Assembly: GCA_030390025.1 (NCBI GenBank)
Contig: CM059431.1
Coordinates: forward strand, 152,770,001-152,834,000
Direction: 5' to 3'
DNA: 64,000 nt
DNA from: Squalus acanthias
Lineage: Eukaryota
Below, piece after piece: positions 21,808 through 60,811 of this stretch. The notes beneath the pieces are model-generated. The model worked only from the letters and a program-made list of their open reading frames with translations. It ran no database searches and was not told the origin of the DNA. Within the stretch, counting starts at the first letter, position 1, and each line of letters starts with the position of its first letter. The position numbers and the translations under genes are program-made.

Positions 21808-22709
21808 TCATCCTTTAATGAATTTTACAATTAGAGTAAATGGATATTTCCCCACATTCTTCAACTGCTCTCTGAACTTAGTCTGGGTGACGGCATAAAT
21901 CCCAGTGTTTGTGCAGCAACTCAGCATCTGCAGCATCAATCCTATTTCCCTTACAAGGTGCGGCAGAATTATAGACACAGTCCACAAATAACTTATCCGG
22001 CTCAATATATAATACACCATAAACACTGTCCATAACAGGATGAAGTTGCCGGAGATTAGAAGCAGTAAAATGATAGATTTCCTGCGGCTCTCCATCTCTG
22101 GGTCTCTGGGATTCTCCCCACTGCTGGGACCCCGGAGTCTCCTGCGGGCTCTGCTGGACACTAAAATGTGTCTGACGGTGAGAGCATTGAGCAGCAGAAT
22201 CACCACAAATGGGACCCCCGGGGTGAGAATATAATGAAGGAACTCAATTGCTCCCCAGACCAGTAAAAACGTAACATCTAGTGTTACATAACAAAACCAG
22301 GGGCGGTTCCGAAGATAATATTCATCTGTGAACATAAAATACCAGAACATGTTCTTCAAACCGCTCAGCACAGTCACTGTTCCCAGAACCACAGCCGCCG
22401 TTTTCTCGGTGCAATATTTAGTTTTCAGTTTCTGGCGGCAAATTGCCACAAATCGATCAAAGGTGAAAGTGACGGTGAACCAGACAGAACAGTCTGTGGC
22501 TGCATAAAGCAGGACGGCGTGGATATTACACACGGGGATGGACTGCACGAAACGAAACTGTTCACTAAAAACAATCGGAATCTGCCTCAATATCAGGTCG
22601 AGGATAACGACCAGTAGATCCGCCGCTGCCATGGCCACCAGGTAGCGAGTGACACATTTGGAGAGACCGCACTTTCCCCGAGACAAGATTACAATCGTCA
22701 CTAAGTTCA
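21808..22709 (-). CDS. Main coding exon of a class A (rhodopsin-like) GPCR, GPR139/GPR142-like family
   Basis: Open 300-codon frame with the end of TM1 through TM7: AMAAADLL, FTFDRFVAIC, PWFC, LTP, SGNFILLW, LSCCTNTGIY. Begins at a phase-1 acceptor (tttcccttcctctcAG, AG at 22711-22710). No TM1 start or ATG, so an upstream exon is needed. Confidence 0.93.
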
Positions 22710-24034
22710 CTGAGAGGAAGGGAAATAAACAGGAAAATTAGACATCAGGCTAGGACATGAGCAGCAGTTTGAATGAATTCGGGGAGAAATCAGCAACTCC
22801 TCAGCGACATTCAATGATAAAATCTAAGTCGATTGCCCGTGGTGCTGAATACAGGGTTTGTTGTAAGAGTAATCGGGAATATATTGTGGACTTAAGAAAT
22901 GAAACGAGATAAATACAACATGAAAGTATTAGATGTTTGATCAATGATAGATTAAATGGTAGAGCTATATTTAGCCCCGCAGACAAAAACATCGCCCGAG
23001 GTACCAAGGACACAAAGGACCAGAATATCTCAGGAAGCCTTCGTGTCCCGGGATCAGTCAGCATTTGGAGCGGTGTAATTCGCTTCAGTGCCCCTGTGTT
23101 CGGGAGGGGCAAATCCCGCTTTGATTCCTGCTCCTGGTTGGAATATCCATTATATTTAGAACTGAAAGTGAAAGCAACGGTAAAATAAAGAAACTGCAAT
23201 CTTGGTATGCAATAATTACAGGCAATTGGATTTAAAATGTACGGCGGTAATATGCAAGTACTACGATAATAAATACAAGTGCCCTGCAGTTATAAACATA
23301 ACTGGGAATTAAGAAGTGTTTGAAGATTGAGCTTTCCATAGTTTTGCTGAAATACTCAAATTGTGGCTCATTATAAGGAAGATTTTCCAAATAAAATTGC
23401 AGAGAATGGAATCTGAATTAAAATACAGAGTTATGATTGACCAGGTAATATCCCACTCAATGCATTTATTAGCGTCATAATTAAGCGACTCATCCCACAG
23501 GCAGCGAGCCGCCGAACGCTTTCGTAAAGTATCTGAAAACCAATGGAAGATAAATATCCTCGTACTTTTTCACCTGTTTGTTTCCAACATGTGCAGAGAA
23601 TATTCGTCGAGAAAATATGAAAGGATTTTCTTATCCTCAATACTTCAGTTACAATCAGCTTGGATTGTTTATCCTGCAGTACAGCAGGAGGCGATAGAGA
23701 ATCACTCTGGGTCTCACTGAGTGATCCATTGAACTGTGACAGACGGGCACGGGATCCAATTGTAAATTCAAAACAAATATTGGAAATAAACGCATTGAAA
23801 TATGGCTGACTGAACGTTTTTGGATAATTGAAATTATCCTTGTAATCCTTTTCTAACCATCAGAAACATTATCAATAATGCAGATCTAGAGTTGGTGGGA
23901 AAGGAGACACTGACTGGAACTGAATGATTTGCGGATATTTCAGACATTTAAAAATGTGTTTGTGATCTGCCAGGATTTGTTCCTGTGACTCTGTCAGTAA
24001 CCATGCCGAGCATTCACTGAAAACAAAATCCAAT

Positions 24035-24152
24035 TACTGTGGATGCTGGAAATCTGAAATAAGAACAGGAAATGTTTTAAACACTCAGCAGGCCAGGCAG
24101 CATCTGTAGAGAGAGAGAGAGTTAACGTTTCAGGCCGATAATCATTCGGCAT
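24035..24152 (-). mobile_element. Penelope-like 3' end fragment, degraded
   Basis: Homologous to 2042-2140 and 25340-25440. Confidence 0.7.
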
Positions 24153-24599
24153 TAGTTAAAAAGTCTCCTCTAACAAGAAAACATTCCTCTGATCTGTTAC
24201 AAATGTTCAGTGTAGATAGCAGAACGAAATTCGTTAAGCAAAGTGTCTCGTTCAATATCCTTTCTTGAGTTGAATATAGAACAATTAAATCTTGGTAACA
24301 CTGTATCACCCTCAGAATCAACAGCAGACAGCAGTGCGGATGGGATGGAGAATGACAAGGAGAGAAATACAGTTAAACATGATTTATAGAATTAATAGCG
24401 GGATACAGAGACTTACCAGGAACACGTACAGCGGCGAGGATGTGCCAGTCATTTTAAGCAACAACTCTTGCATTAACAAAGATGCAGCTACTTGGAACAC
24501 AGAATACAATTAATAACTGAGTATGCCACGGTAAATAGCAAGAATAATATTACAGTATAAAATGGTTTATTGAATTAATCACTGGATAGAGATACGTAC

Positions 24600-25487
24600 A
24601 AGGAACACTGACAGCAGAAAAAAGGGGATAGTAATTTTTTTGTATAACCTCCCTTCCCCTTTCAGCATTCCGAAGGAACCGCACCCTCCACAACACCCTG
24701 GTCCATTCCTCAATCACCCCCTACAGCCCCTCCCCTCCCCACGGCACCTTCCCATGCAAGTGCAGGAGATGCAACACCTGCGCTTTTACCTCCTCCCTTC
24801 CCACTCTCCAGAGCCCCAAACACTTCTTCCAGGTGAAACAGTGATTTACTTGTACTTCTAACAAGTTAGTATACTGTATTCGCTGCTCACGATGCGGTCT
24901 CCTCTGCATTGCGGAGAACAAACGCAGATTGGGTGATTACTTTGCGGAAAACTTATGTTCTGTCCGTAAGTGTGACCCCGAGCTTCCGGTCCCCGTGACT
25001 TTAATTCGCTGCTCCCCTCCAACTCTGACCTCTCTGTCCTCGGCTTCTTACAGTTTTAAATAGAATCTCAATTTAACCGCGAGGAACAGCACTTTATCTT
25101 TCTATTCGGCATTTTACAGCATTCTGGACTCAACATTGAGTTCCGCAATTTCGGACCATAACCTCCGCCCCTATTTTTTTCAGGCGTCAGCTGTTGATGT
25201 TTCTCCCATCCCCATTTGCAACATTTAAGCACTCCTGCATTCCAGCCTATCACAGACAATCCCTTTTGTTCTTTGCTCCACCCCTCCCCAATTTACCTGC
25301 CTCTGCACCTGCTTAATATCTGTTGCAGCTGTAAACTTTTTCAGTTCTGACGAAGGGTCACAGACCTGAAACGGTAACACTTGCTCTCTCCACAGATGCT
25401 GCCTGACCTGCTGAGTGTTTTCAACATTTTGCTCTTGTTATTCCAAAGTATTGTTGTTCACTGCCATTGTTCAAGAATACTTTCCAT
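24600..25487 (-). pseudogene. Disrupted proximal GPCR first exon
   Basis: Removing the Penelope insert gives MESILEQWQ*TTILWIQKNYYPLFSAVSVP followed by GTACGT. In-frame TGA at 25460-25458. Confidence 0.7.
24646..25442 (+). mobile_element. Penelope-like retroelement 3' fragment (GIY-YIG remnant and hammerhead-like motif)
   Basis: Translates PCKCRRCNTC...FTCTSNKLVYCIRCSRCGLLCIAENKRRLGDYFAE. CTGACGA-AGGGTC-ACA-GACCT-GAAAC at 25347-25372. Confidence 0.85.
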
Positions 25488-25552
25488 AGAGATCCTCGAA
25501 CACACGACATCCCTTCTGTGAGAGGCTGGTGGTCTTTGTGCTGATTGTGTGA

Positions 25553-25660
25553 GGTCACACAGTGAAGGGAGCTCCTTATTTAGAGCAGAGGGAAACCCCC
25601 GAGTGACATCATTAGGGCTCACTGTAACTGGCATTAATTACATTCATTGAACAAACAGAC
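25553..25660 (-). promoter_or_regulatory. Putative GPCR promoter (proximal copy)
   Basis: Collinear motif series shared with 59965-60070: GTTTGTTCA, AATTAAT, CCCTAAT, GGGTTTCC and TATA-like TAAATAAGG. Confidence 0.55.
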
Positions 25661-25769
25661 TCATTGATACATTTTCACCACTCAACTTCACTACAACACA
25701 ATCTAGCTCATATTATTGTACACAGCTTTAAATAAAACATGAGTGTATGCTCAATATTTCACTCTTCCT

Positions 25770-26860
25770 CAGTACAGGAATTTCATTCCCAGGGCCGCCT
25801 AGATTACACTTTCCTTAGTCCAGGAATTTAAATCGCAATGCCTCCTAGCTTACACTGCTCCCGCCTCAGTGCAGGAATGTAATTCGCAGGGCCGCAAAGA
25901 TTACACTGCTACCGCCTCAGTCCAATAATTTAATTCCTTGGGCCGCCAAGATTACAATGCTCCCGCCACAGTCCAAGAATTGAAATCCTTGGGCCGCCAA
26001 GATTACAATGCTCCCGCCACAGTCCAAGAATTGAAATCCTTGGGCCGCCTAGGTTAAACTGCTCCCACTTAAGTCCTGGAAATTAATTCCCTGCGTCTGT
26101 ATGTAAAACGAAAAGCTTTAAAAAAAATTTACTTTTTTACTGGGAAAATTTTTACTTTTTTACTGGGAATCACATCTGTGAACAAGCTAACGACGACTCG
26201 AGTCCGGATCACGTCATGTATCGTGACATAAACCCAAGATCTTGGGTTTATGTCACGATACATGACGTGATCCGGACTCGAGTCATCGTTAGCTTGTTCA
26301 CAGATGTGATTCCCAGTAAAAAAGTAAAAATTTTCCCAGTAAAAAAGTAAATTTTTTTTAAAGCTTTTCGTTTTACATACAGACGGCAGCTTTTGACACG
26401 TTAGAACCCCTGCGACTACACCTCATTGTCTCACTTGTATCTTGCTATGTCTTTGATGTGGTACCTTCCTGGCTGACTTAATTAACTTTATCACACCTCG
26501 GCAGATAGTCAGGATGATTTAATTTATTGGTCTGCAATTGTAAAGTACACATGCTTTGTTTTCTATCTATATATGCTCTGGCGATTCTGTATCCCGCTAA
26601 AATTACACAGTTCCCGCATTAAACCAGGAACGTAATTCCCATGTACGCCTAGATAATACTATTGTTCCCTCAGTGCAGGAACTTTATTCCCATGTTCGAC
26701 TTCATAACACTGCTTCCACCTCAGTGAAGGGATTAAATTCCCAGATCCGCCTCGATTAAACTGCTCCCGCCTCACTCCAGAATGTTGATTCCTAGGGCCA
26801 CCTAGATTGCACTGCTCCCGCCTCAGTCGTGGAATTTCATTCCCAGGCCTGCCATAGATT
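25770..26860 (+). repeat. 51-bp minisatellite (resumes at about 31405-31500 beyond the LINE)
   Basis: Unit GGGCCGCCAAGATTACAATGCTCCCGCCACAGTCCAAGAATTGAAATCCTT. Interrupted at about 26094-26590. Confidence 0.85.
26094..26385. repeat. 292-bp spacerless palindrome
   Basis: 146-bp arms centred on AGA|TCT (26239/26240). One mismatch seen. Confidence 0.95.
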
Positions 26861-29800
26861 CATAGAATCATCGAGTTATACAGCCCAGAAAGAGGCCCTT
26901 CGGCCCATCGTGTCCGCGTCATCCAACAGGCCCTGTCTTTTTTAATCCCATTTTCCAGCACTTGGTCCATAGCCTTGTATGCTATGGCGTTTCAAGTGCT
27001 CATCGAAATGCTTCTTGAATATTGTGAGGGTTCCTGCCTCTACCACGCTTTCAGGCAGTGAGTTCAAGATTCCAACCACCCTCTGGTGAAAACGTTTTTC
27101 CTTCAATCCCCCCTAAACCTCTTTCCCCTTACCTTGAAACTATGCCCCATGTTTATTCACCTTACTAATATGGGAAATGTTCCTTTCTATCTACCCTATC
27201 CAAGCACCTCATAATTTTGGACACCTGAAATCAGTTCCCCCCTGAGCCTTCCCTGCTCGATGGAAAACAACCCCAGCCTGCCCAGTCTTACTTCATAGCT
27301 GAAGTGCTCTAGCCCAGGTAACATTCTGGTGAATCTCCTCTGCACCCTCTCCAATGCAATCACATCCTTCCTATAGTGAGGCCGCTAGATCTGCACATAG
27401 TGTTCCAGCTGTGGCCTAACCAGCGTTGTGTACACCTCCATCATAAAATCCCTGCTCTTCTATTCTATGGCTCGGCTAATGAAGGCAAGTATCACATATG
27501 ACTTTTTAACCACCTTATCTAGATGTCTTGCTGCCTTCAGGGATTTATGTACATGCACACCAAGGTCCTGCGTTCCTCTGTCCTTCCTAGCGCCCTACAA
27601 TTCATTGTTTATTCCCTTGCCTTGTAACTCCTCCCGAAATGCATCACCTCACACTTTTCAGGGTTAAATTCCATTTGCCACTGTTCTGCCCATCTGACCA
27701 ACCCGTCTTATCGTCCTGTAGCCTGAGGCTTCCCTCCTCGATATTTAACACTCAACCAATTTTCTTGTCACCTTCGAACTTACTGATCATACCTCTTACA
27801 TTCATATCTAAATCATTAATGTACACTTCAAACAGAAAAGGACCCAGCACCGATCCCTGCGGTACACCACTGGACACAGGCCTCCAGTCACAAAAACAAC
27901 CTTCGAACATCACCCTCTGCCTCCTGCCACTAAGACAATTTTGAATCAAATGTGCCAAATTGCCCTGGATCCCATGGGCTCTTATCTTCTTGACCAGTCT
28001 CCCATGCGGGACTTTGTCAAAAGCCTTACTGAAGACAATGTAGACTTCATCAACTGCACTACCCTCATCTACACACCCAGTCAGCCCGTCGAAACATTCA
28101 ATCAAATTGGTTAGACATGATCTCCCCCTGACAAAGCCATGCTGACTAACTTGATTTATCGTTGCCTCTCCAAGTGGAGACTAATTCTGTCCCTCTGAAT
28201 TTTTTCCAATAATTTCTCTACCACTCATGTTAGGCTCACTGGCCTGTAATTCCCTGTTTTATCCCTCCTACCTTTCTTGAACAATGGTACGACGTTAGCT
28301 GTTCTCCAATCCTCTGGCACCTCCCCTGTGGCCAGAGAGGTTCTGAAAATTTGTGTCAGAGCCCCTGCAATCTCCTCCCTTGCCTTACACAGCAGCCTGG
28401 GATACATCTCGTCTGGGCCTGGGGATTTTTCCACTTTTAAACCCGCTAAAACCGCCAGTATTACCTCCCTCTCAATACAAATTTGTTCAAGTATATCACA
28501 GTTCCCCTGTCTGATTACTATGCCTGCATCTTCCTTCTCCATAGAGAACACAGATGCAACATATTCATTTAAAACCTCTACTACATCCTCCGGCTCTACA
28601 CACAAATTGCCACTTCGGTCCCGAACGGGCCCTTCTCTTTCCCTGGTTATCATCTTGCCCTTATTATACTTATAATGCACCTTGGGATTTTCCTTTATTT
28701 TGCTGGCCAGTGTTTTTTCATGCCCCCTCTTCGCTCTCCTAATTTCGTTTTTATGTACCCCCCTGCACTTTCTATAATCCTCTAGGGTTTACACTGTTTT
28801 TAGTCCTTTGCATCTGCCAAAAGACTCCCTTTTTTTCTTCATCCATTCTTGTATATTCCTTGACATCCAGGGTTCCCTGGGCTTGCTGGTCCCACCCTTG
28901 ACCTTTACGGGAAAATGTTGGCGTTGTACTCTCTCTATTTCCTTTCTGAAAGAGTCCCACTGCTCTGATGTGGATTTTCCTACAAGTAGCTGATCCCAGT
29001 CCACTTTGGGCAGATCCTGCCTTATCATATTAAAATCGGCCTTCCGCCAGTTTAGAACATTCATTTCCGTTCCATCTTTGTCCTTTTCCATGACTACCTG
29101 AAATCTCACCGAATTATGGTCGCTGTCACCATAATGCTCTCCTACTGACACTTCTACCACTGGCCTGGCTACATTCCCTAGAATTAGGTCCAGTTCCGCC
29201 CCCTCTCTTGTAGGACTTTCTAGATGCTGGCTCAAAATGCTCTCCTGGATGCACTTTAAGAATTCTGCACCCTCTAAGCTTTTCGCACTCTCACTGTCCC
29301 AGTTAATATTTGGGAAGTTGAAATTCCCTGCTATTATTATCCTATTATTTCTACAACACTCTGAGATTTGCCTACATCTCTGTTCCTCTATCTCCCCCTG
29401 ACATTTTGGGGGCCTATAGTACACTCCCAGCAAAGTGCTTGAAACTTTTTGTTTTTAAGTTCTACCCATAAGGCCTCATTAGAGGAACCTGCTAATATAT
29501 CATCCCTCCTTACAGCAGTAATTGACTCCTTGATTAATATTGCGACACCCCTCCTTTTGCACATCCCCCTCTGTCTCGCCTGAAGTTTCTATACCCCGGA
29601 ATATTGAGCTGCCACTCCTGCCCCATCGTCCATGTCTCTGTGATAGCAACAATATCATCCTCCCATGTGTTCGTCAACAACTTCAATTCATCTGCCTTAC
29701 ATGCAAAAGACCTTGCATTGAAATAAATGCCATTCCAGCTAGCCATAATTCCTTGTGCCGTTACATATTTGCTCTGCCTTCCAGGATGACTTGTTTTTTC

Positions 29801-31390
29801 CTCCATATTTAGCTGTGCATCACCCCCTACTATAGCTCCACTCCGTATCCCATCCCCCTCCCAAGTTAGTTTAAACCCCTCACAACAGTACTAGCAAAAT
29901 TCCCCGCAAGGATGTTGGTCCCGTTCCGGTTCAGGTGCAAGCCGTCCGACTTGTACAGGTTCCACCTTCCACAGAAGCAGACCCAGTGATCCAGGAAACT
30001 AAAGCCCCCCCTCCTGCGCCAACTCTTTACCCACGCATTCATCTGCTCTATCCTCCTATTCCAATATTCACTAGCACGTGGCACCGGGAGTAATCCAGGA
30101 ATTACAACCTTTGAGGTCCTGCTTTTTAATCTGCTACTTAGCTCCCAAAATTCATGTTGCAGAACCTCATCCCTCTTTCTACCCTTGTCGTAGGTATCAA
30201 TGTGAACCACGACATCTGACTGTTCGGCCACCCCTTTCACAATGCCCTGCAGCAGTTCAGTGGCATACTTGACCCTGTCACCAATGAGGCAACATACTAT
30301 CCTGGAGGCACGACTGCGGCCACAGAAACGTATATCTGTTCCCCTTACGATAGAATCCCCTATCACTATTGCTCTCCCACTCTTTTTCCTCCCCTCCTGT
30401 GCAGCTGAGCCACTCGTAGTGCCACAGACTTGGCTCATGCTGCATTCCCCTGAGAAACCATCTCCCCCAGCAGTATCCAAAACGGAAAATCTGTCGGAGA
30501 GGGAGATGACCAAGGGGACACCTGCATTACCTTTCTAGTTATTTTAAACTGTCTGGCGGTCACCCATTTCCTGTCTGCCGGTGCACTCTTTACCTGCGGT
30601 GTGACCACCCCGTTAAACGTGCTATGCACGAAGATCTCAGCTTCGCGGATGCTCCACAATGACTCCAGCTGCATCTCCAGCTCAGAAACGCGGATTTCGA
30701 GTAGCGGCAGCTGGAGACATTTCCTGCACATATGTTCCCCCTGGAACCGAAAGTGTCCCTGACTTCCCACATAGCACAGGATGAACACTCCACGCTGCCA
30801 AGCTGCCCTGCCATGTCCTACCCTTAATTTACTCCCAATACTTCATTTAAATTAATGAATATTAATTACACTAAGGACGTAACCTCCCTTTAAACACTAC
30901 TTACTCTAAACTAGAGATCTTACTTTGACATTAAGGACTGGACTGTAGAAATACTCACCAGGTCATACTTAACAATCAACTCATTCCCTGGTAGTGAACT
31001 CACGTTAGCGGTTTCGCAGTCGCTGTTGTTTGACTACTCCCGCTCGTGGACTCTTTCCTTGGTGTACAAAAATAACCAATTCCGACAGGGTGAAATGTTA
31101 GGAAAAACAAAGGCGACGCAAGGGAGGTTCTCCTTCCACTCCTCACGTAACTCCCTGACTCACCCAACTCTTAGCACTCTGTTCAAACCGCACTTAGTGC
31201 AAAATCGCACTTCAAAGCCTTTTTTGTAGGCACTGAAACAATGGAGACTTGCTGAGCCCAGCTACAAGAGAACCAGTTTAATCTAGTTTCCCTAATTATA
31301 TGCATTCAGCTGCTCTGAATTGGAGGACTTGTATATCCCTTTATAACCCCGCTTAAATCTGGGAAATTTAGATTTTAAGCAGTAAAAAGT
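26853..31390 (-). mobile_element. Near full-length decayed CR1 LINE
   Basis: ORF1 remnants at 30814-29866 (CSSC..CRKC, GDSIVRG, DGLH). ORF2 remnants (ITETW, YRPP, GNFN, SDHN, NYRPVSLT, PQGSVLGP). 3' tail at about 26853-26875. Confidence 0.93.
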
Positions 31391-31639
31391 AACAGTAAAT
31401 GCCTATAAAACACTGCTCCCGCCGCAGTACAGGAATTTCATTCCCAGAGAAGCCAATGTTACATGCTCCCGCCTTAGTCCACCAAATTGATTCTATTTGC
31501 CTGAATCTAGAATAAGAACAACAAGGTGTTTCTAATGATTGACCTGAAACAGCTAATTTGTAAAGGTGCTTTACAGAGGCGGCGAAAATAATAAAACGAG
31601 CAAAGGGTTGACACAAAGGAATCAAAGCAAAACGCTTAA

Positions 31640-31878
31640 AATATTAACCAATGAGATAACTATCCTGGAGCTGTCTCAATACTCCATGAAACTCTCTGGA
31701 AACATTGAATTCTCGCACAATCACAGTCACAGAACCAGACCTATAAGTCAACATTCCCGACTCCTCCGTCATCATCCCAGATTATATCCTATTCCACCGG
31801 CAAGACAGACTCACCAGAGGTGGGGGCACAGGAGTATACAGTCGGCTGTGAGGTTTCCTCGAGTCCTCAACATTGCCT
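31640..31878 (+). mobile_element. Family-B LINE endonuclease fragment (left part, continues at 40397-40870)
   Basis: HRQDRLTRGGGT-like sequence that joins across the RTE insertion. Confidence 0.7.
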
Positions 31879-34138
31879 CTTCTCTTCTTAGGCAGTCCCT
31901 CGGAACCGAGGATGACTTGATTCCACACTAAAAATGAGTTCTCAGGTGACGGATGAGTCCAATGCGGCACCTATTGTCTCTGTCAATGGTGGGCCAGACG
32001 GTGGTTGAAGAGGCGGGTGGGTGAGGTGCTTGGGTTGACGTGCACTCCTTCTGCTGTTTGTGCTTGGCTTCCACTGGCACCCGGCGAAGAGACGGATGTT
32101 GCACTTTTCCAAGGAGGCTTTGAGGTTGTCCATGAAGCGTTTCCTCTGCCCACTTGGGGATCTCCTGCCGTGTCGGAGCTCCGAGAAGAGCGCTTGTTGT
32201 GGGAGTCTCTTATCGGGCATGCGGACAATGTGACCCGTCCATCAGAGCTGATCGAGCGTATTCAAAGCTTCGATGCTGGGGGTGTTGGGCTGAGCGAGAT
32301 CACTGACTTTGGTGCACCTATCCTGCTAATGCATTTGCAGGATCTTGCGGAGGCAGCTTTGGTGGTACCTCTCCAATGCTTTGAGGTGCCTGCTGTACAT
32401 GGCCCATGTATCTGAAGCGTACAGTTGGCGGGAATTACTACTGCTATGTAGTCCATGAGCTTCATGCCGGGTTTGAGGTCCTGATCTTCAACCACTCTCA
32501 TCCTCAGGCGACCGAAGGCTGCACTGGCACACTGAAGGCTGTGTTGGACTTGGTCATCGAAGTCTGCCCTTGTTAACAGCATGCTCCCGAGGTATGCAAA
32601 GTGGTCCACGTTGTCCAAGGCATGGTCGTGCATTTTGATAAACGGGGGGAAGTACTGTGTGGCGGGGGCAGGTTGTTCGAGGACCTTTGTCTTACGGATG
32701 TTTAATGTACGACACATGCTCTTGTACGCTTCGGTGAAAGTGTTGACGATGGTTTGGAGTTCGGCCTCTGAATGTGCGCAGATCTCTGCATACTGTAATT
32801 CGATGCCAGAGGATGGGACGACCTTGGATCTGGAGTGGAGGCGACGGAGGTTGAAAAGTTTCCCGTTTTTTTCTGTAGATTAGCTCCACTCCAGCTGGGA
32901 GCTTACTGAGGGTGAGATAGAGCATTGCTGCCAGGAAGATCAAGAAGATCATTGGTGCAATGACACAGCCTTGCTTGACACAGGTCCGTACGTGAACTGG
33001 GTCTGTGGGGAGATCTGTTCTTCAACATCACAGCTTCCATGTCGTCATGAAGCAGGCAGAGGATGATGACAAACTTTTGAGTGCAGCCGAATTTGAGGAG
33101 GACATACCCTAATCCCTCACGGTTGACAGTGTCAAAGGGCTTTGTGAAGTCAAAGAAGGCCATGAACAGTGGTTGGTGCTGTTCCCTGCATTTATCTTGT
33201 ATTTGACGCGTGGTGAAGATCATGTCCATCATTCACCTTAGTGGGCGGCATCCGCATTGCGAATCAGGGAGGAGCTCTTCAATACTGAGAGAAGGCGATT
33301 GATAAGGCTTCTTGCAATGACTTTCCCTGTGGCAGACAGCAGGAACACTCCTCTGTAATTACCGTAATCAGATTTGTCACCTTTCCTGAACATGGTCACG
33401 ATTACGGCATCTCTGAAATCCGCTGGCATGCTCTCCTCCTTCCAGATAAGATAAACGAGTTCATGTATTCGCGCCAATAGTGCTTCTCCGCCATGCTTTA
33501 GCCCCGCGGCGGGGATTCCATCTGCTCCTGAGGCCTTGTTGTTCTTCAGTTGTCGGGTGGCCTTTTCAAACTCATGCCGGCCTGGGATTTTGCTGAGGTG
33601 GTGGCAGGTAGCATGCTCTGGGATGGAGTTGAGGGCAGTCGCATCGAAGACAATGCCTCGGTTAATAGACTTCGAACTGCTCCTTTCAGCGGGCACTTAC
33701 TCTCCTCTCTGTCCTTGATGATTACCTCTCCGTTCTTGGCCCGCAGTGGGGAAGGACCTTGGTTGCTTGAGCCGTAGGTGGCCTTGACAGCGCTAAATAA
33801 TCTACGCATGTCGTGGTTGTCGGCAACCTGCTGGATCTGCTGGGCTTTCTCCACCGACCATCTGTTCTTTAGATCGCAAGTTTTTTTATTGGACATCGGT
33901 CTTCAGGCGTTTGTAGAGCTGCTTTCTTGCTCTCGACGTGTGTTGCTGTTTCAAGATCAGGAATGCCTTGCACTTGGAACTGATTAGCTCCTGGTTCTCC
34001 TGGCCGTTTTCTTCGAACCAGTCTTGGTGTTTCCTGTTTGAGTGACCGAGCATCTCTTCACCGCTGCTGATTATGGAGGCCTTGAGTGCAGACAAGGCGC
34101 TGTGGACACTCTGTGTCTCTGAATCACTTGGAGTTATT

Positions 34139-48455: not shown

Positions 48456-48644
48456 GCTAAATAAGCATGTGCGAAGGGGTCGTTTTCAGTACACGATTAC
48501 AATATGGGAGCGAACATTAATTGCTAATAATCTGTAAGAACATTTAGGAAGCCCTAGAATTTCTGATCCGAAATCGGTTGTTTTGCGCCATCGCTCGAGA
48601 GGTATTTTTACGCCCTTGAGCTTTCACCGTTTTTTCTCCTTACA

Positions 48645-50615
48645 AAGCCTATGTGACTATTTCTGTCCCTTTAAAATGTTGTGTGTCTGGTTCTGTCTCT
48701 TTAAATAGCCTGTGCGACTGGTTCTGCCTCTTTAAAAAGCTTGTGTTACTGGTCCTGTCTCTTTAAAAAATCTGTGCGACTTCCACTGTCTCTTTAAAAA
48801 GTTTGTGTGATTGGTCCTGCCTCTTCACAAAGACTGTGTGACTGGACGTGTCTTTATAAAGTCTTCGTGACCGGTCTCTTTAAACTGTTGTGAGACTAGT
48901 CCTGTAACTTTAAAAATCCTAAGTATCTGGTGATATCTCTTTAAAAAACTTTTTGACTGCTCCTGTCTCTTTAAAAATCGTGTGTGACTGTTCCTACTTC
49001 TTTAAGAAGCATGTGTGGCTGGTCCTCTCTCGTAAAGCAGCCTGTATGATTGATCCTGTCTCTTTAAAAGGCCTTTGTTACTGGTCCTATCTCTTTTTAA
49101 GTGCAATGTCACTTCATCTGTCCCTTTAAAAAGCCAGTGTAACTGGTCCTATCTCTTTAAAGAGCCTGTGTGAAAAGTCCCTGTCTCTTAAAAAAAAACT
49201 TGTGACTGGTCCTGACTCTTTAAAAAGCCTGAGGGACTTGTTCTGCCTCTTTTAAAAGCCTGTATGACTGGTTCTGTATCTTTAATAAGCCTGAGTGAAT
49301 GTTCCTGTCTCTTTTAATAGCCTGTTTGACTGGTTCTGTCTCGTTAAAAAGCCTGTGGGACTTGTCCTGACTATTTAAAAAGCCTGTTTGTCTGGTCCAG
49401 TTTCTTTTTCAGGACAATTTGATTGATTCGGACTCTTAACAACCCTGCGTGACTGGTTCTGTCTCTTTAAAAAGCCTTTGTGACTGGGTCTGTCTTTCAA
49501 AAAAGCCTGTCTGACTGGTTATGTCTCTTTAACAATCCTGTGTGACTGGACTTGTCTCTTTACAAAGCCTGCATGACTGATCCTGTCTCTTTAAAAAGAC
49601 TGTGTAAATGATCCTGTCTCCTTTATGAATTCTGTGTTACTGGACTTGTCTCTTTAATAAGCCTGTGTGACTGGTCCTGTCTCTTTAAAAATACTGTTTG
49701 ACTGATCCTATCTCTTGAGAAAAACCTTTGTGACTGGTCCTATCTGTTTTAAAGGTCTGTGTGACTGGACATGTCGCTTGAAACAGCCTGAGTGATTGTT
49801 CCTGTGTCTTTAAAAAGATTGTGTGACTGATCATGTCTCTTTAAAAAGCCTGTATTATTATTCCTGTCTCTTTAAAAAAGCCTATTTGACTGGTCCTGTC
49901 TCTTTAAAAAGAATTTGTGATTGGTTCTGGTTATTTTAAAAGCAAGTGGGACTGACTATGTCTCTTTAAAAAGCCTGTGATGGTTGTGTCTCTTTAACAA
50001 TCCATTGTGACTGGACCTCTATTTTCAAAGACTGTATGACTGATCCTGCCTCCTTAAAATGATTGTGTGACGGATCCTGTCTCATTATAAAATTTTTGTT
50101 ACTCGTCCTATCTATTTTAAAGGTCTGTGTGACTGGACCTGTCTCTTTAAAAGAAAGAAGAATGACTACCGATTATATAGCGCCTTTCTCGATCTTGCGG
50201 ACGTCTCTAAGCGCTTTACAGCCAATGAAGTATTTTGAAGGACTGTTGTGACTTGGGAAACGCGGCAGCCAATTTCCACACAGCAAGTTCCCCAAACAGC
50301 AATGTGATAATGACCAGAAAAATCTGTTTTTGTTATTTTGGTTGAGGGATAATATTGGCAAGGACACAAATAGCCGGTGTGATTGTTCGTGTCTCATTGA
50401 AAAACCGTTGTGATTGGTCCTGTCTTTTGCAAAAGCCTGTGTGACTGGTCCTGTCTCTTTTAAAATGCCTGGATGAATGATTTTGCCTCATTAAAAAGCC
50501 AGTGTGTCTGATCCTGTCTCTTTATAGAACTGATCCGCTCTCTTTAAAAAGCCTGTGTGCCTGGCCCAGGCTATTTACAACATATATTTAACTGGCTCTC
50601 TCTCTTAAAAAGCCT
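48645..50615 (+). repeat. 31-bp minisatellite (CTGTGTGACTGGTCCTGTCTCTTTAAAAAGC)n
   Basis: Diverged tandem units. A SINE tail fragment is inserted at about 50150-50368 (minus strand). Confidence 0.93.
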
Positions 50616-50810
50616 TTAGGTGTTTTTTTTCTGACATTGCATGTTAAGAAGAGCCGGAATGGATTTTTTTATACAGGGGACCATGAGATTTGGTACCACA
50701 GGGGTGTTGATGGTGCAGGTTTACTGAGACGAGTTCGTTGACACAGAAGTGGCTTCAAAGAGTTACGGAGAAATCTTTGCTGTAAAAGTACTGTTAAGAA
50801 TTGAAGACTT

Positions 50811-50927
50811 AGGCCTAGAAATCCGTGTTTGACTGCAGTGGAACTGAATATCACGCGCTGCGTGTAACGGGCGCCCGATCCGATACCGCCCGTTTAGCGC
50901 CTCCGCCCGAGACGAATTCCTAAGCCC
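50811..50927. mobile_element. Very short TIR-bounded element (possible mini-MITE)
   Basis: Imperfect inverted ends AGGCCTAGAAATCCGT / ACGAATTCCTAAGCCC with a GC-rich interior. Confidence 0.4.
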
Positions 50928-51089
50928 TTTCTGCAGACATCGGCAGATATCAACTGTCAGTGCGTACTGACGAATTGGACTGAGATTTTGCCTCTCAAAG
51001 GCTTGGCTTCAACCCATTCAGAGTCATTTGTTAACTTCCGTGTCAGATTGCTCCATGGGTGAGGAGATATAAGAGTTATACCTGAAATT

Positions 51090-51240
51090 ATTTACAAGCA
51101 CTTCTGTCTGATCTAAACTCTGCTGTCGTTGTCCTAACTCGCACCAAGTCCCGTTCACCCATCACCCCTGTGCTCACTAATTAACATTTTCTCCCGGTTC
51201 GGCAATCGCTCGATTTTAAATTTCTCAACCTTGTGTTCAG
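51090..51240 (+). mobile_element. L2-clade LINE fragment
   Basis: CACCCATCACCCCTGTGCTCACT...CTCCCGGT resembles the HITP.L..LHWLP region. Confidence 0.6.
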
Positions 51241-52269
51241 CCCCAACGCATTGCCAAGTGTCTAGTAAAGAATTTTCATCCCGAAAATGCCAAACGTTAG
51301 TTAGTTTATGTTTAGTATTTTAGCGTAAGTACATTTCACCCCCCAGCGCTGTAGTTGGATTCCAAGAATTGGCATCAGGGGGACGAGGCAGAGATGAGGG
51401 GCTAGAATTCGGCTAGAATTCGGCTCGGAATTTAGCACAAATCACCACCATCTCCAATTTAACCCTTCAAGTCACACACCATCAGGACTTGGAATTTTAA
51501 AATAAATTATTCGGATCTGGGCGTCGCTGGCAAGGCCAGAATTTATTGCCCTGGAGAATGTGCTTTTGAGAAGCCTTATACAACTGAGTGCCTTGCCAAG
51601 GCATTTCAGAGGGCAGTTAACAAACAAAGACATTGCTGTGAGTCTGGAGCCACATTTCGTCCAGAAAGGTTAACGATGGCAGATTTTCTTGCCTAAAGGC
51701 CATTCGTGAACCAGATGTGTTTTTACTACAATCCGGTAGTTTCATGGTTAACATTCCTGACACTAGCCTTTTATTCCAGATTTGTTTAATTAATTTAATT
51801 TAACTTCCCCAGCTGTTGAGATTTGAACTACAGGATTTTTCGTTCGGGCACCTGGTTACAGGTCCAGCAACAAAACCACTATGCTACCAAACCCTTCAAA
51901 TACATCGCCGTTACTTCACCGTCACTGGCTCAAAAGCCTGAAATTCCTTCCGTAAGAGGATTGTGGGAGCACCTTCACCACACGGACTGCAGTAGCTCAA
52001 GATAATTGAAAACCATTATCTCGTGGGTAACTAGGGAGGGGCAAGTAATACCGGTCATAACAGCGCCACCAATATCCTTAGAACAAATAAATATAAATAA
52101 TAAAATGGGAATAAAATCAATGATTTTGTAATTAATTGATAGAAACCACGCGAGAACTATTATCCATGCGGACGTCATGCTCCGCTAAACAAATTGTCAA
52201 AGTAACTTGCCTCATCAATTCTATGCTTTTATGATTGATAGTACTCACACTTTTCCCAATTTCCCTATC

Positions 52270-53048
52270 CTTTCAAACGGTGTTTGATAAATTAAAACAT
52301 AATAAGAAAAATGAAGCCCATGGGATTAAAGGGGCAGTGGCAATATGGCTCGGAAATTGGCTAAGAGACAGAAAATAGGGCAAACGGCTGTTTTTCAGTC
52401 TGGAAGGAAGCATAAAATGGTGCCCCCCCCAGGGGTCGGCATTGGGACCATTGCTCTTTTCATGTATATCAATACCATGAAATTGTGTAGAAAGCACATC
52501 ATTTCAAAGTTTGCAGGTGATAGTAAACTCGGAACCGTTAACTAACAATGAGATGGGTAGCAACAGACATCACGAGCACATAGACAGACTGGTGAAATGG
52601 GCAGATTGATGGTAGAAACAATTTAACACAGAGAAGTGTGAAGTGATACATGTTGGTAGGAACTATGAGCAGAGCCAATATAAACTAAACGGTACAATTG
52701 TAAAGTTTGTGCACGATCAGACAGGCCTGGGGAGTATTCTAAAAAAAATCGAAAGTGGCAGGACAACTTGCGAAAGCTGCTAATAAAACATACGGAGTCC
52801 TTGGCTTTACAAACAGAGACACAGAGTAACAAAATCCAGGAAGAAGTGGTAACCTTTTCTAAATCACTTTTTAGGCCCCAGCTGGAGCATTGTGTCCAAT
52901 TCTGGGCACCAAACTTTGGCAAGCATATCAAGGATTAGAGAAGGTGCAGGGATTTACCAGAATGGAACCAGGGATCTGGGAATTCAGTTACGTGGAGAAA
53001 CTGCTACGCTGGGTTTGTTCTTTTTAGAGCAGCGAAGGTTAAGGAAAA
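52270..53048 (+). mobile_element. Old CR1 RT fragment
   Basis: AHGIKG, SKFAGDSKL and PQLEHCVQFW remnants. Confidence 0.8.
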
Positions 53049-54488
53049 TAGAATTATAGAATCATAGAAATGTGCGGCACAGAAGGAGGGCATTCGGCCC
53101 ATCGTGTCTGCGCCGGTCGCAAAAGAGCCATCCAGCCTAAATCCACTTTCCAGCTCTTGGTCAGTAACCTTGCAAGTTGTGGCACTTCAAGCGCACATCC
53201 AAGCACTTTATAATGTGATGAGGGTTTCTGCCTATACCCCCATTCCAGGCAGTGAGTCCCAGACCCCCACCACCCACTGGGTAAAAGGAATTTTCAACTC
53301 TCCTCGAATCCTTCTAAAAATTACGTTAAATCTATGCCCCTGGTTATTAACATCTCTGCAAAGGGTATAGCTGCTTCCTATCAACTCTATCTAGGCCGCT
53401 CATAATTTTATGCATCTTAGTTAAAACACTCCCTTAACCTCCTCTGTATTATAGAGATCGAGCATAACCTCTCATGCTGTTATATTCTATGTCTCGGCTA
53501 AAAAATAAACTATCCTCTATACCTTCTTAACCATCTAACTACCTGTCCTGATACCTTCACGGATCTGTGGACATGCACTTCACGTCCCTCTGTTCCTCCA
53601 CATTTCTCAGTATCATACCAATTATTGTGTATTCCCTTGCCTTGTTAGCCCTCCCAACTTCTCCAGATGGAATTCCATCTGACATTTTTCTGCCCACCTG
53701 ATAAGTCCATTGATATCTTCCTGCAGTCTATAGCTCTGTTCCTCACTATCAACCACATGGCCAATTTTTGTTTAATCAGCCAATAGTTTAATCATGCCCA
53801 CTACATTGAGGTCTAAATCATTGATGTATACCATAAAAAGCTAGGAACCAAGTACTGAGTTCTGCAGAAAACCAATGGAAACAGCCTTCCAGTCACATAA
53901 ACACCCGTCGACCATTTCCCTTTCCATCCTGCCACTGATACAATGTTGGATCCAGCTTGACACTTTCCATTGGATCCCATGGGCTTTTACATTTTTTTAC
54001 CAACCTGTCATGTTGAAGCTTGTCAAAGGCCTTGCTAATATCTATGTGGACTAAATCTAATGCACCACCCTCATCGATCCTCCTCGTTACATCCCTATCA
54101 AATTCAATCAAGTTACTCAGTCACAACATTATCTTGTCTCTCAGCATGGGATACATTTCATCTGGGCCTGGCGACTTATCTACGTTCAAAGAAGCAAAAT
54201 CTCATAATCCTTCCTGTCTCTCTATGCTAATCATATCTAATATTTCACACTATATCTCTTTAACTACAATGTCTGCATTGGCCTTCTTTTCTGTGTAGAC
54301 AGTTTAAAGTATTCATTAAGTACCATACCCATGTCTTCCACCTCCACACACAGTTCACCTTTTTGGTCACTAATAGGCCCGACTGTTTCCTTATTTATCC
54401 TCTTGCTCTTTCTGTATTTACAAAACATTTTGGGGTTTTCCTTGATTTAACTTGTTAATATTTTTTTCATTCCCTCTCTTTGATTTCA
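53049..54488 (-). mobile_element. Old CR1 fragment with 3' end
   Basis: (ATAGAATC)n tail at about 53050. DISKAFDK motif. Confidence 0.8.
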
Positions 54489-54489
54489 C

Positions 54490-57400
54490 TGAGACATGTC
54501 TACCAAAACTTCAGGACTGGGAATTAAACATTGCAGGCTATAACATATATAGAAAAGATAGAGAGAGGGAAATGGGGAGGTGGAGCAGCTGTACTTATTC
54601 TAGATACTATAATGGCAGTAGATAAAAGTGATGCAGTTATCAGCAAGGCAGAAATAGAATACATATGGATAAAGATGAAAGATATTAAAGGATCAATCTC
54701 ACTAAGAGGGGCAGTCAACAGAGCACCTAATAGTGGAAGAGATTTGGAGGTAGAAATATGCAGACAAATTCGGAAATCAGTAAAAAAAAATGGAGGAATT
54801 GAAATTCCCAGATATTAATTTAACAAAATAGGCAGGTAAAGGGGCTAAGGGAAAGGAGTTCCTACAATGTGGACATGACTCCTTTCTAACCAATATGCAA
54901 AAAACCCAACAAGGGAGGATTAACTATTGGATCTACTAATGGGGTATGAAACACAGCAGGTAAGAGAAGGAAAAGTAGTGGAACATCCAGGCAATAGTGA
55001 CCATAATATAATACGCTTTAAGATAATAATTGAGAAGGGCATAGGCATGACAAGGACCACGGTAATAGATTGGAGAACAACTGATTTTGAGGGGCTGAGA
55101 ATAACACTTAGGGAATAAAATGGACAACATTCGCAAACAATGATGGAGAGCAGCAATGGGAAACATTTAAAACAGTGTTCAATAGAGTCCAGGAAAAATA
55201 TATTCTGCTAAAAAACAAGAATAAGCTAAACAATAATGAGACACCGTGGATGAATATAGCCAAAAAAGAAAAAATTGAGCATAAGGAAAGCGGCCTTCAT
55301 TAACTACATGGACAGCAGGGGAGAGTATGATAAGGGAAAATATGAATGGTTTAGAAGAGAAGTAAAAAAAAACAATAAGGAAGGCAAGGAGGTACTATGA
55401 AATTAAATTATCAAGGAACAAAAGAAATTAAAATATTTAACAGGCATAACAATAGAAAAATAAGCTTGGATGGGAATAGGGCCGGGAAGCAATGGAGAGG
55501 ATAATAACACAGGCAGCAATAGAGAGTTGGCAGAGAGTATGGATAAAGTGTAGCTAATCAGCGTAGCAGAAGGAGGGTAGTAGAGTTCTACAAGGATCCG
55601 TGCTGGGACCACTGTTGTTCACAATTTATATTTAGATTAGGGGGAAAAATTCAGTTGTTTGCACCTCCCGTTAGCGCCTTAAGAGGGCGCTAACGGTGCA
55701 CAAAGCATCTGGCGCCTTGGCCGCGGCGATGTTTGCACCGCTCGTGAAATTAACTAGACATTTTTGCGGCGGCGCTAAACACTACCGCCACGATCTCCTG
55801 CGCCGGCAGATCGTGATGTCAGTCGAGTGTGCAACGCCCCGGTATCGCCACGGAGCGGATATTGAGTGGCGCCCCCTGCCTTACCGCCTGCCGCTAGCAA
55901 CGACAGGTTGAGGGGAGCGTTTTGCAGTCAGTAAGGGACTGGGGGAGTGCTATTTAAAGACGACCACTTCCTGCCTTTTATTGTTGGTGAAATTTTTGAA
56001 CAACGCATTCTGAGAGAGAGAGAGAGAGAGAGAGACTTCTGGAGAGATTCAGAGCTGTGTGAAGGAGTTTTGGTTACTGAGCAGCACTTTGCAGTTACAT
56101 TTTGATTTGCCCTTCCTTGTATCAATTTAGAAAAGACTTTGGGGGCTGCACTATGAGCTCTTTCCCTGGTACTCTCCATTGTTCTTTCCAGCAGATTTGA
56201 TGTGCAGGTCTCTCCAGGCCGAAATTCAAGGCTGCAATGAGTAGGATGTGAATGGAAAGTAAGATCAACCCTCCCCTTTAAGAACTGGACCGCGCCATTG
56301 TGTGTGTGTTCCATTGCTAATTGACATCACATGAGCTTCGCCAGCGCTCAGAGGTAGCGCCTCGCTCCTCGGCCTTTGAACCTTAAGACAGGTGTGAAGC
56401 GCCTGATTTAGCACTCCAATCACCTCCAGGTCGATAAAAGTCAAGTTTGCAGTCGGTGGCGCTAATTAACGCCAGGCGCTAATCTTTGCGCCCGGCCGTT
56501 AATTGCGCCTCAAAAATGGGGCGATACTGAATTTCTCCCCCTTCGACTTTGGAGCCAAAAACAAAATTTCTAAATCTACGGAGGCACAAGACTGGATAAA
56601 ATGCCCAATACTGAGGAGGACAGCAACACATTTCAAGAAGGCCTTAATAAAATTGCAGAATGAGCAAATAATTAGCAAATGAAATTCAACATAGATAAAT
56701 GTGAGTTATTACATTTTGGTAAGACAAAGAGGAAGGTCACATATTACTTGGAAAATAAGAAGCCAAAATGGGGTAGAGGAGCAAAGGGATCTAGGAGTAC
56801 AATTATTCAAATCTCTGAAAAGTATCGACACAGCTTAAAAAGGCCATACAAAAGCAAACGAAGCACTATGGTTTATTTCTGGAGGGATAGAATTGAAGAG
56901 TAGTGAAGTTATGGTAAATTTCTATCGAACGTTGGTATGGACTTGGTTGGAACACACTTGGAATACTGTGTGCATTTCTATTCGTCTTATTATAAAAAAG
57001 GATATAGAGGCATTGGAGAGAGTGCAGGGAAGATTTACAAAGATCATACCAGAAATGCGAGGGTACACCTGTCATGAAAGGATGAACAGTCTGGGTCTCT
57101 TTTAACTTGAAAAGAGAAGTTTGAGGGGTGACCTAGTAGAGGTCTTTAAATCATGAAAGAATTTGACAGAGTAAATGCAGAGAGAATGTTTCCACTTTTT
57201 GGAGGAGGAAAACTAGAGGTCATCAATATAAGAAAGACACCAAGAAATCTAACATGGAATTCAGAACAAATGTCTTTACCCAGAGCGTGGTGAAAATGTG
57301 GAACACGCTACCACAGGGAATGGCTCAAGCGAATAGTATAGATGCACTTAAGGGGCGGTTAGATAAGCTTAAAAGGGAGAAGGGAATATAGGGTTATGCT

Positions 57401-57512
57401 GATAGAATTAAATGAGGAAAGACAGGTGGAGGCTCCAGTGGAGCATAAACACCGGCCCAGACTGGTTGGGTCAAATGGCCTGTTTCTGTGCCGAATATCC
57501 TATGTAATCTTA
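54490..57512 (+). mobile_element. CR1-clade LINE, deleted and decayed, interrupted by a Harbinger MITE
   Basis: GGG.AVLI, SDHN, KCELLHFG and KDIEALERVQ remnants. The 3' end matches 1342-1900. Confidence 0.85.
55640..56541 (-). mobile_element. Older Harbinger MITE (902 bp)
   Basis: TIRs GGGGGAAAAATTCAG / CTGAATTTCTCCCCC with flanks TTA/TTC. Collinear with 38381-39274. Confidence 0.9.
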
Positions 57513-57671
57513 TGAAAGCTTATGAAACCCTTGCACTTACTTTACTCCTCTAGGCTTTCTGTATTAGTGTGCTCTGAGCATTAGACAGAAGCTTCCCTTA
57601 TTTCACTTCTTCTTCCCTGTATGCTTCTAGACATCCAGTGGGCCCTAAATTTGAGAGTCCCATCCCTTTTT

Positions 57672-58125
57672 GTCAGCTGTGGCTTAGTTGGTTGCACACT
57701 CACATCTGAGTCAGAAGGTTGTGGGTTCAAGTCCCATTCCAGGGACCTGAGCACATAAAACTATGCTGACACTCAAGTGCAGTGCTGAGGGAGTGCTGCA
57801 ATGTAGGAGGTGACGTCTTTCGGATGAGACGTTAAACGGAGGCCCCATCTGCTCCCTCAGGTGGACGGAAAAATGCCCATGGCACTATTTCGATGAAGAG
57901 CAGGTGAGGTGTCCTGGCAAATATGTATCCCTCAATCATCATAACAAATCAGATTATCTGGTCATTAACACATTGCTGTTTTGGGAGCTTGCTGTGCGCA
58001 AATTGGCTGCCGCGTTTCCTACAATACAGCAGTGACTACACTTTAAATGTACTTCATTGGCTGTAAAGCGCTTTGAGTCGTCGGGTGGTCATGAAAGGCG
58101 CTATATAAATGGAAGTCTTTCCTTT
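57672..58125 (+). mobile_element. Complete unexpanded tRNA-derived SINE (DeuSINE/SacSINE1-like)
   Basis: TGGCTTAGTTGG A-box, GGTTCAAGTCC B-box, a single copy of the 33-bp motif (about 57778-57812) and an L2-type tail. Confidence 0.88.
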
Positions 58126-58149
58126 CCGTTTTTATTTGTGGTGAAATAT

Positions 58150-59370
58150 TTAAACCCTCACTATCTCCTCATTGAATGCCCCCCATTGCTCTGACACTGA
58201 TTTACCTTCCAGTAGCTGTTTCCAGTTCAATTTTGCTAAATTGCATTTCAGCTTAGTAAAATTGGCCTCTCCCCAATTGAAAACTTTTACACCTGGACTA
58301 TCTTTGTCCTTTTTCATAAGGGGAGATTTAATATAGATGTAAAAAATTTGATTGGATTTCATAGCGTGCATAAGTCGAATAGTTTTCCAGTGTCAGAATG
58401 GTGGGTAAACAGCGTACACAGATTTAAGTTAATAGGCAAAAGACCCAGAGGAGAGACGAAGAGAATTTACTTTTTGCAGTGAGTTGTTGAGATCTGGAAT
58501 GCACTGTCTGAGAACGTGGTGAAATTAGATTCAGTAGGAAATGTAGAAAGGGAGTGGGATAATTAGTTGGATGGGAATTTTTTTACAGGGCTCTGGCTAA
58601 AGAGTAGGAATAATGAGACAGCTGTTTCAAAGAGATGGCACTGACACGATGGGCCGAATGGCCTCCATGTGTGCTGTACCATTCTATGATTCTATGAGCA
58701 AGAGACATAGAGAGAGAACAGGGAGAGTGAGAGACGGAGAGAAAGAAAAATAGAGGCAGAAAGACTGGGAGAGGAACAGCAGGGAAGACATTAAATTAAA
58801 AGGGGGAATTGGATAAATAATTGAAGGGTAACAATTTGCAGGACAATGGAAAAAAGAACTAGGGAATGGGACTAATTGGAGGGGTGAGGTCATGCTGGGA
58901 TTTGATCTTAAGGATGAGAATATTAAGATCGAGGCATTTCCTGATCGGGAGCAAATGGTGCTCATTGAGCAAAGGGGTGACGGGTGAACGGGACATGATG
59001 CGTGTTAGGGAATGAGCAGCAGAGTTTTGGATGAGCTCTAGTTTATGGAGGCTTTTAACTGGGAGGCCAGCCAGGAGAGTATTGGAATAGTCGAGTCAGG
59101 TAAAACTAAATCACGCGTGAGGGTTTAAGCAGCGGAAGGGCTGAGGAGGGTCGGAGACGTTCGATATTATGGAGGTGGTAGTCGGCAGGACTGATGGTTC
59201 AGAGGATATGTGGTCGGAACACAGAGCAGGCTCAAAGAGAAAGCCGTGGTTGCAAACAATCTTGATGCTCCTCAGACATTGGACAGGGATGGGGATTCAA
59301 TTGGTAAATAAAAAATGGAGTTTTTGCCGAGGAGCGAAGAGAATGGCTTTGATCTTCCCAAGATTTAAAT
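58150..59370. mobile_element. Cluster of old LINE fragments (CR1 minus 58150-58320, CR1 3' end plus 58320-58695, L2-like minus 58890-59370)
   Basis: Degenerate similarity to the other copies in the window. ATTCTATGATTCTATG tail at 58681. Confidence 0.65.
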
Positions 59371-59633
59371 GACAAACACAGTAATACAGTGAGACGTGGT
59401 GTACAGATCTAATTGCTGGATGTAGAAAGTTAACAGGAACACCAACAGCAGCACAGATGAGAGGGTAACTTCCGAGAAAAGTAATACAGTATGCAAAGCT
59501 TTGCAGAGTTAATAGCTGGATACAGAGACTTACCAGGAACAACAACCGCAACAAGGAGGGGAATGTAAAAGGCAAGAACTTTACTGCAGTTAATCACGGA
59601 TTATAAAATTAATAGCTTGATAGAGAGACTTAC

Positions 59634-59814
59634 CAGCAACACCAACAGCAGCAAGGACGGGATAGTAAATGCATTGCATAATCAGAAGTGCGTAATAGAT
59701 CTTATTTATGAATGATATATAATCATAATAGAGAGTAAATATTTCAAACGCCGAGGATGAACTCTTGCCCATTGTTGTAAAATTCAAATCTACTGATCTC
59801 AGATTCTGATCCAT
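59634..59814 (-). CDS. Intact GPCR first coding exon (N-terminus and TM1), 60 aa plus 1 nt
   Basis: MDQNLRSVDLNFTTMGK...IYYPVLAAVGVA ending at G|GTAAGT (phase 1). Joins in frame to 22709 as AAVGVA-VNLVTIVIL, giving 360 aa. Confidence 0.8.
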
Positions 59815-60120: not shown

Positions 60121-60164
60121 TTCAGTTAACCCATTTCAATCCAGCACGTTTTGGACCACAGTAA

Positions 60165-60763: not shown

Positions 60764-60811
<48 letters not shown>

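Follow-up and report, generated by a model that had tools for sequence, protein, structure and literature searches.

In a 64,000-nucleotide stretch of the Squalus acanthias genome (assembly GCA_030390025.1, contig CM059431.1, positions 152,770,001 to 152,834,000; hereafter the window), an intact exon encoding the body of a seven-transmembrane (7TM) receptor lies downstream of two cassettes of promoter and first exon, a dead proximal one and an intact distal one some 37 kb away. We lean towards reading this locus as a mosaic produced by recombination within a very large family of two-exon GPR139-like receptors that evolves by birth and death. On this reading the complementarity of its exons would be a by-product of array turnover, with no first exon kept for the body by selection. 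Coordinates of all features are collected in Table 1.

The body exon matches Pfam 7tm_1 (E 3e-20) and belongs to the class A 7TM receptors. It begins in phase 1 within the first transmembrane segment (TM1), half of which it lacks on its own; an AG acceptor precedes 22709 and the stop codon is TGA 21813-21811. The nearest solved structure by sequence is human GPR139 (PDB 7VUG and 9M42; E 1e-8, residues 1-281). A homologue search with the body returned 2618 homologues among 4416 candidates. The 120 homologues listed, from Heptranchias, Heterodontus and Pristiophorus plus one from Carcharodon, all carry the automatic model name 'probable G-protein coupled receptor 139', the best at 81% identity, and by sequence likeness the window body is placed as a member of this shark expansion. 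The working set comprised 117 of the 120, the double or fused models P0001, P0002 and P0004 having been dropped. To these single-body homologues the body is 71-81% identical, and it departs from conserved columns at 2/138, compared with a median of 3 among homologues that were themselves picked for likeness to it. A GC-rich 27-bp tandem array (21288-21707) begins about 100 bp past the stop codon, in the would-be 3' untranslated region (UTR).

The proximal first exon carries an in-frame TGA at a site that encodes Ile in 76/91 homologues and is split by a Penelope-like insertion. Eleven positions are conserved in at least 80% of the 91 family first exons, one of them fixed by the exon selection itself; the proximal exon departs at 5/11, whereas none of 89 full-length family exons departs at more than three. 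This decay exceeds that of the body (p 2e-5) and that of the distal exon (p 0.035). Because five of the conserved positions have been lost and the insertion has itself decayed, the proximal exon has been dead for a long time. The insertion encodes a broken zinc-knuckle/GIY-YIG-type region. The fragment itself has no Pfam match; its relative P0137 matches RVT_1 and GIY-YIG, both under the Pfam cut-off, which would fit the order of reverse transcriptase followed by GIY-YIG that Penelope-like elements carry. The names Penelope, CR1, RTE, L2 and Harbinger are used here on the basis of Pfam domains and of the known architecture of these elements. Compared with seven relatives, the insertion departs at 4/39 invariant and 6/44 near-invariant positions, suggesting an age of about 5% nucleotide decay, a coarse value since the relatives come from other species; representatives at 50% identity were too distant for dating. 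Three routes of rescue were rejected: translation from the second ATG (25467) would halt where the insertion begins, the frame leading to the third donor is closed by a stop 11 codons before it, and the insertion end offers no in-frame ATG. The dead exon also contains a cryptic pyrimidine-tract acceptor before 24607.

The proximal exon is separated from the body by a 1,890-bp intron. Two stretches of this intron (23859-23434 and 23289-22804, 142 and 162 codons) are stop-free on the minus strand in the body's frame, though stops cut them off from the body itself, and neither matched Pfam.

The distal first exon, in contrast, departs at 0/11 conserved positions and joins the body in frame across an intron of exactly 36,924 bp, giving a stop-free product of 359 residues. 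It is of the long type, with 14-residue repeats; its best class score is 109, where shuffled sequences reach at most 49. The proximal exon is short by length and motif, with a class score of 34 that lies within the shuffled range (maximum 44). Among paralogues, the 42-bp repeat of the long class, which encodes 14 residues with an N-glycosylation sequon, occurs in one to at least five copies; at the distal exon such repeats (59894-59768) overlap the exon start, the first two copies lacking an ATG. The distal 5' region matches the translated 5' region of the Heterodontus model P0199. The cassette forms an island of about 800 bp, family homology stopping near 59365 and an old fragment of a long interspersed nuclear element (LINE) adjoining the promoter near 60140. 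A homologue search with the distal exon alone returned none from 24 candidates.

This geometry had been described in an original prediction made from the letters of the window, and the description holds. The 7TM exon does need a phase-1 upstream exon, the nearest candidate does bear a stop and a Penelope insertion, a second intact phase-1 exon does lie across 36,924 bp, and the two promoters are homologous over their cores. The prediction had also found no other body exon in the interval and had called for a tblastn search for remnants; run with the body over the whole window, tblastn gave a best other match of E 0.068, inside the insertion and on the opposite strand. A further nhmmer search of the whole window with 24350-21750 detected just two Penelope fragments and no remnant of a body or 3' intron. 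The claim that the cassettes encode different N-termini stands for the distal one, which is demonstrably long, and more loosely for the proximal one, assigned as above. Missing from that account were the repeated exon-end/donor units, the 26/51-bp array found at the proximal promoter only, and the probable join at 23662-23721.

We then considered how the body could be clean behind a long-dead exon. When neutral decay was simulated, CpG and indel rates being assumed, the body frame survived 5% divergence in 1.75% of runs, and the probability of keeping 136/138 conserved columns was 1e-4. The body thus did not decay alongside its proximal first exon: it is too clean for shared decay, and was therefore either kept by selection via another first exon or recently replaced. 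The prediction had offered, as one outcome, that both pieces are halves of decaying paralogues; in that simple sense the idea fails, given a proximal exon at 5/11 with a decayed insertion and a body at 2/138.

In one run, depth points to replacement. Four public runs were aligned to 21750-25750 at 88% likeness, with 40 of 409 variant rows shown, and none of them looks like the window's own source. From promoter to body, contig depth over the proximal unit is far above the 10-20 of single listed pieces (depth is not copy number), and family sequence is continuous from the array to the body; throughout its length, the proximal unit consists of common family sequence present in many copies. In run X1, non-variant depth is kept at 26/26 sites between 22265 and 23661 (minimum 15, about the depth of the closest contigs), compared with 0/8 low-copy sites between 23722 and 25617 (Fisher p 6e-8). 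Five sites in the insertion's high-copy part were set aside (X1 keeps non-variant depth at all five), site 21799 was in neither group (none kept), and deletion depth was subtracted at 23825. The closest listed piece, from X1 in the 3' part, spans 215 nt with 2 differences and 1 gap (about 99%), and the X1 word share of 0.51 fits a partial copy. On the simplest reading, X1 carries a copy of the body and 3' intron, about 99% identical, that is not attached to the dead 5' part. The probable join is placed at 23662-23721 because the X1 contrast switches there.

Across the family, first exon and body do not share one history. The long class of first exon with 14-residue repeats is found in all three well-sampled species, together with shorter classes, and all family first exons share one phase and one motif at their ends. 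We built a tree of 32 hand-picked homologue bodies and the window body, 19 of them long-type; the short group is mixed, and some of its models may be truncated or mis-joined. Species labels require 4 changes on this tree (shuffled mean 15.0, 0/200 as low), while exon class requires 9 (shuffled 10.3, 133/500 as low), and a single clade of the 19 long-type bodies is rejected by the approximately unbiased (AU) test (p 0.002). Bodies therefore group by species, not by first-exon type, across three sharks. Strongly mosaic body pairs number 2/6903; in Heptranchias, P0057 and P0096 are 81% identical over the first half of the body and 99% over the second, and their first exons differ.

The comparison of first- and second-exon histories that the prediction had proposed thus bears fruit for the family, where class is decoupled from the body tree, and fails for the window body, whose own class could not be assigned. 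Its identity to short-type and long-type homologues is alike (74.6% versus 75.4%), only one diagnostic column was found, beside the junction and confounded by species, and no starred clade contains it. Its sister in the tree is the short-type P0031, with weak support (92/45).

Intact bodies without a usable nearest first exon would appear to be a common state, unless annotation missed exons. Of the 117 homologues, 91 have their own family first exon, and the first-exon motif is failed by 26 models (about 24 without two near-misses; three are marked partial). The bodies of these 26 are equally conserved (mean 3.1 versus 3.2 deviations), and in the P0031 cluster 4/6 members begin at an internal Met. 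In many shark models a stretch of LINE or intron is wrongly taken for the first exon, and some models run two bodies together (P0001, P0002, P0004, P0202); public annotation of this receptor family is unreliable at the N-terminus.

We therefore propose the following sequence of events. A short-type copy died long ago at its first exon, as the stop, the retroelement insertion and the donor decay in the window show. At a far later time a live paralogue may have contributed its body and 3' intron to the dead cassette, by unequal crossover or gene conversion within the conserved intron near 23.66-23.72 kb, and the body would be clean because it was recently recombined from that paralogue. Upstream, a long-type paralogue would have lost its intron and body, both absent from the window, for example by deletion, leaving an orphan promoter and first exon among transposons. 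Recombination and the frequency of clean headless bodies can explain the clean body, which thus does not require rescue from the distal exon; on the mosaic reading any distal read-through would be incidental.

Several points weigh against this proposal. The distal exon is fully clean (0/11) although an old LINE adjoins its promoter, and was therefore under selection until recently or still is. The sister P0031, weak as its support is, fits a native body better than one imported from a long-type gene. Runs X5 (55% read; 18/25 versus 4/8) and X6 (13/26 versus 2/8) display no contrast of the kind seen in X1, and the X1 contrast itself comes from the 40 of 409 rows. The depth kept in X1 may represent a third letter, contigs drop variants, and the event may have run the other way, the X1 lineage having lost the dead cassette. 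Models without a first exon may likewise be annotation misses or be served by distant exons.

The strongest rival is that the locus is a working chimera, which we regard as possible but the less probable account. Here the distal promoter would transcribe 36.9 kb, and the cap-proximal donor would splice to 22709, skipping the dead cassette. The product, to which we give the same tentative standing, would be a 359-residue receptor with a predicted long glycosylated N-terminus. The exons are exactly complementary (distal 0/11, body 2/138, proximal 5/11), neutral decay since the insertion is excluded by the simulated frame survival, phases match, donor and acceptor are canonical, and bodies of this type are most often paired with a long-type exon (68/117). 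A coherent route would be that a neighbouring long-type gene gave its body by crossover and later lost its own, its first exon still finding a partner downstream. That route also fits a join at 23.7 kb, but the short-type sister P0031 leans weakly against it. More generally, the clean body can be explained without selection, a LINE stands at the distal promoter where the array should be, and the transcript path contains 18 AATAAA and 16 pyrimidine-rich acceptor-like sites, besides the cryptic acceptor in the dead exon, use of which results in a stop from either donor. A load of AATAAA and acceptor-like sites of this kind is not unusual in long introns. The single possible RNA run, X18, shows no junction: its paralogous contigs cover the body bins and leave several intron bins bare, and among the rows shown there is no joint or loose end at 22709, a result that is uninformative either way. 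Among the public runs listed as sharing sequence with 21790-24700, none was an RNA run. The prediction's proposal that the distal cassette serves the body thus survives as this lesser possibility and is no longer needed to account for a clean body.

A broader form of the same idea, in which the distal exon serves the body, N-termini and promoters are reassorted by intron crossover together with long-range splicing past dead cassettes, and many headless bodies use distant first exons, appears improbable to us.

We consider it quite unlikely that the distal exon and body come from different loci or alleles joined by an assembly artefact or haplotype switch, across satellite or at about 23.7 kb. 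The family is multi-copy, the interval holds long satellites, and both the palindrome in the promoter array and the abrupt X1 change at 23.7 kb could be taken as seams; on the other hand, the window contains no N, the promoter array does not change orientation across the palindrome or across the LINE that splits it, and family homology is collinear across 23.7 kb (pieces 23573-23738 and 23678-23857). Least credible of all is the variable-first-exon design that the prediction had suggested, in which shared bodies would regularly receive any of several first exons, each with its promoter, after the manner of UGT1 or the clustered protocadherins: first-exon class is decoupled from body phylogeny, many intact bodies have no modelled first exon and first exons share phase and motif, but recombination explains the decoupling, the locus has just two first exons with a single one live and the other long dead, 91/117 homologues have their own, and the bodies are the multi-copy, diversified part (2618 matches), the reverse of one constant region.

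Table 1. Features of the receptor locus, in window coordinates.
Feature	Positions	Strand	Remarks
7TM body exon	21811..22709	-	open, conserved; from second half of TM1 through C-terminus; split codon, then 298 codons
3' part of intron	22710..23661	-	CTAAT resembling a branch point, pyrimidine tract; run X1 has a near-identical relative
Putative crossover/conversion boundary	23662..23721	.	last X1 non-variant site 23661, first without 23722; one run
Exon-end/donor units after proximal exon	24330..24599	-	last one: perfect GTAAGT donor after 24417, no open frame upstream
Proximal exon 1, 3' half (dead)	24600..24648	-	YYP motif; coding resumes 24648; donor weakened to GTACGT after 24600
Penelope-like insertion (by sequence)	24649..25442	+	794 bp, decayed, antisense to receptor; stop and frameshift
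Proximal exon 1, 5' half (dead)	25443..25487	-	ATG 25487; TGA 25460-25458
Proximal promoter and 5' UTR	25488..25760	-	core 25656-25557 homologous to distal promoter; many paralogous contigs at >=88%
26/51-bp array upstream of proximal promoter	25767..31501	-	pieces 26093-25767, 26860-26594, 31501-31403; split by palindrome and LINE
Interval	26954..59349	.	LINE fragments in both orientations, Harbinger-type element ~41.0-45.2 kb, satellites 45524-48454 and 48635-50152
Distal intron start	59350..59633	-	exon-end/donor unit repeated twice more; second GTAAGT after 59534; likeness to proximal unit ends ~59365
Distal exon 1	59634..59814	-	intact, long class, ATG 59814, 181 nt, phase 1, donor GTAAGT after 59634
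Distal promoter core	59967..60066	-	71% identical to proximal core 25656-25557 over 100 nt, E 2e-7
Old LINE fragment	60139..61215	+	adjoins distal promoter where proximal cassette has array

Both first exons are trailed by two extra units of about 100 nt (59669-59350 and 24647-24330), each comprising exon end, donor and intron start, which are apparently an old family trait offering alternative donors. A 292-bp near-perfect palindrome (26094-26385; 146-nt arms, 99%, loop-free) is inserted in the proximal promoter array and is either a foldback element or a read artefact. Upstream of the distal promoter, the 3.85 kb that the window includes contain no such array. The window as a whole is shark-type DNA consisting mainly of LINE fragments and satellites, and Rfam gave no match. 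LINE orientation, tried as a means of telling intron from intergenic DNA, is mixed in the interval and was discarded as uninformative. The Harbinger-type element in the interval (41038-45190) contains an open DDE frame of 451 codons besides a Myb/SANT frame; another copy starts at 63306 (63306-64000; 95.6% over 700 nt) in the same orientation. The two copies flank a 22-kb segment that includes the distal cassette, whose rearrangement they could have mediated.

By itself the locus matters little, hybrid genes and orphan pieces being expected in arrays of fast turnover. At the level of the family, first-exon class and body history are uncoupled in three sharks, and about one-fifth of intact bodies have no modelled family first exon; functional-gene counts could therefore err either way in a receptor family that is large and, it appears, undescribed. 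A literature search, which covered few subscription journals and excluded supplements, found no paper on a shark GPR139-like expansion or on such an arrangement, and passages of PMC13113109 make no mention of GPR139. If the distal junction were real, a promoter and N-terminus from a neighbouring gene would have rescued or re-wired a receptor 37 kb away. If N-termini are swapped, the window would offer a snapshot of such an exchange, of a long glycosylated repeat against a short terminus, in a receptor family of hundreds.

The closest known genes are the shark 'probable GPR139' models of Heptranchias perlo, Heterodontus francisci and Pristiophorus japonicus (e.g. XP_067833210.1), which share the motif at the end of the first exon, the junction and the N-terminal classes; these are unstudied automatic RefSeq/UniRef names and come without the genomic context from which the frequency of two-cassette loci could be read. 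The phase-1 intron in TM1 after YYP of these two-exon receptors is common to both cassettes here. Their intact first exon lies one short intron upstream, unlike the present case, in which the proximal exon is dead and the next is 36.9 kb off. Human GPR139 is a distant sequence match of the same class, and GPR139 is single-copy in mammals.

UGT1, GCNT2 and Pcdh are conserved tandem arrays of variable first exons with a constant region (PMC1885805). The likeness to our locus lies in upstream promoter-exon cassettes of matching phase before a shared downstream exon. The differences are that those arrays consist of live exons, whereas this locus has one live orphan and one dead exon (two cassettes in 64 kb), and that their constant region is single, whereas the body here is one of very many copies.

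A nearer parallel is provided by the red/green opsin hybrids, which arise by unequal crossover or conversion in tandem arrays. In both cases homologous intron sequence is where the 5' part of one paralogue meets the 3' part of a different one. The switch of closest relative at a breakpoint, as in tandem-array hybrids, is seen in X1 (26/26 versus 0/8), while X5 and X6 lack the contrast. The locus differs from the opsin type in having a pseudogene as its 5' partner and a third exon, far off, from which the N-terminus could be supplied by splicing. By this analogy, if the locus works at all, it would do so in the way of a tandem-array hybrid gene.

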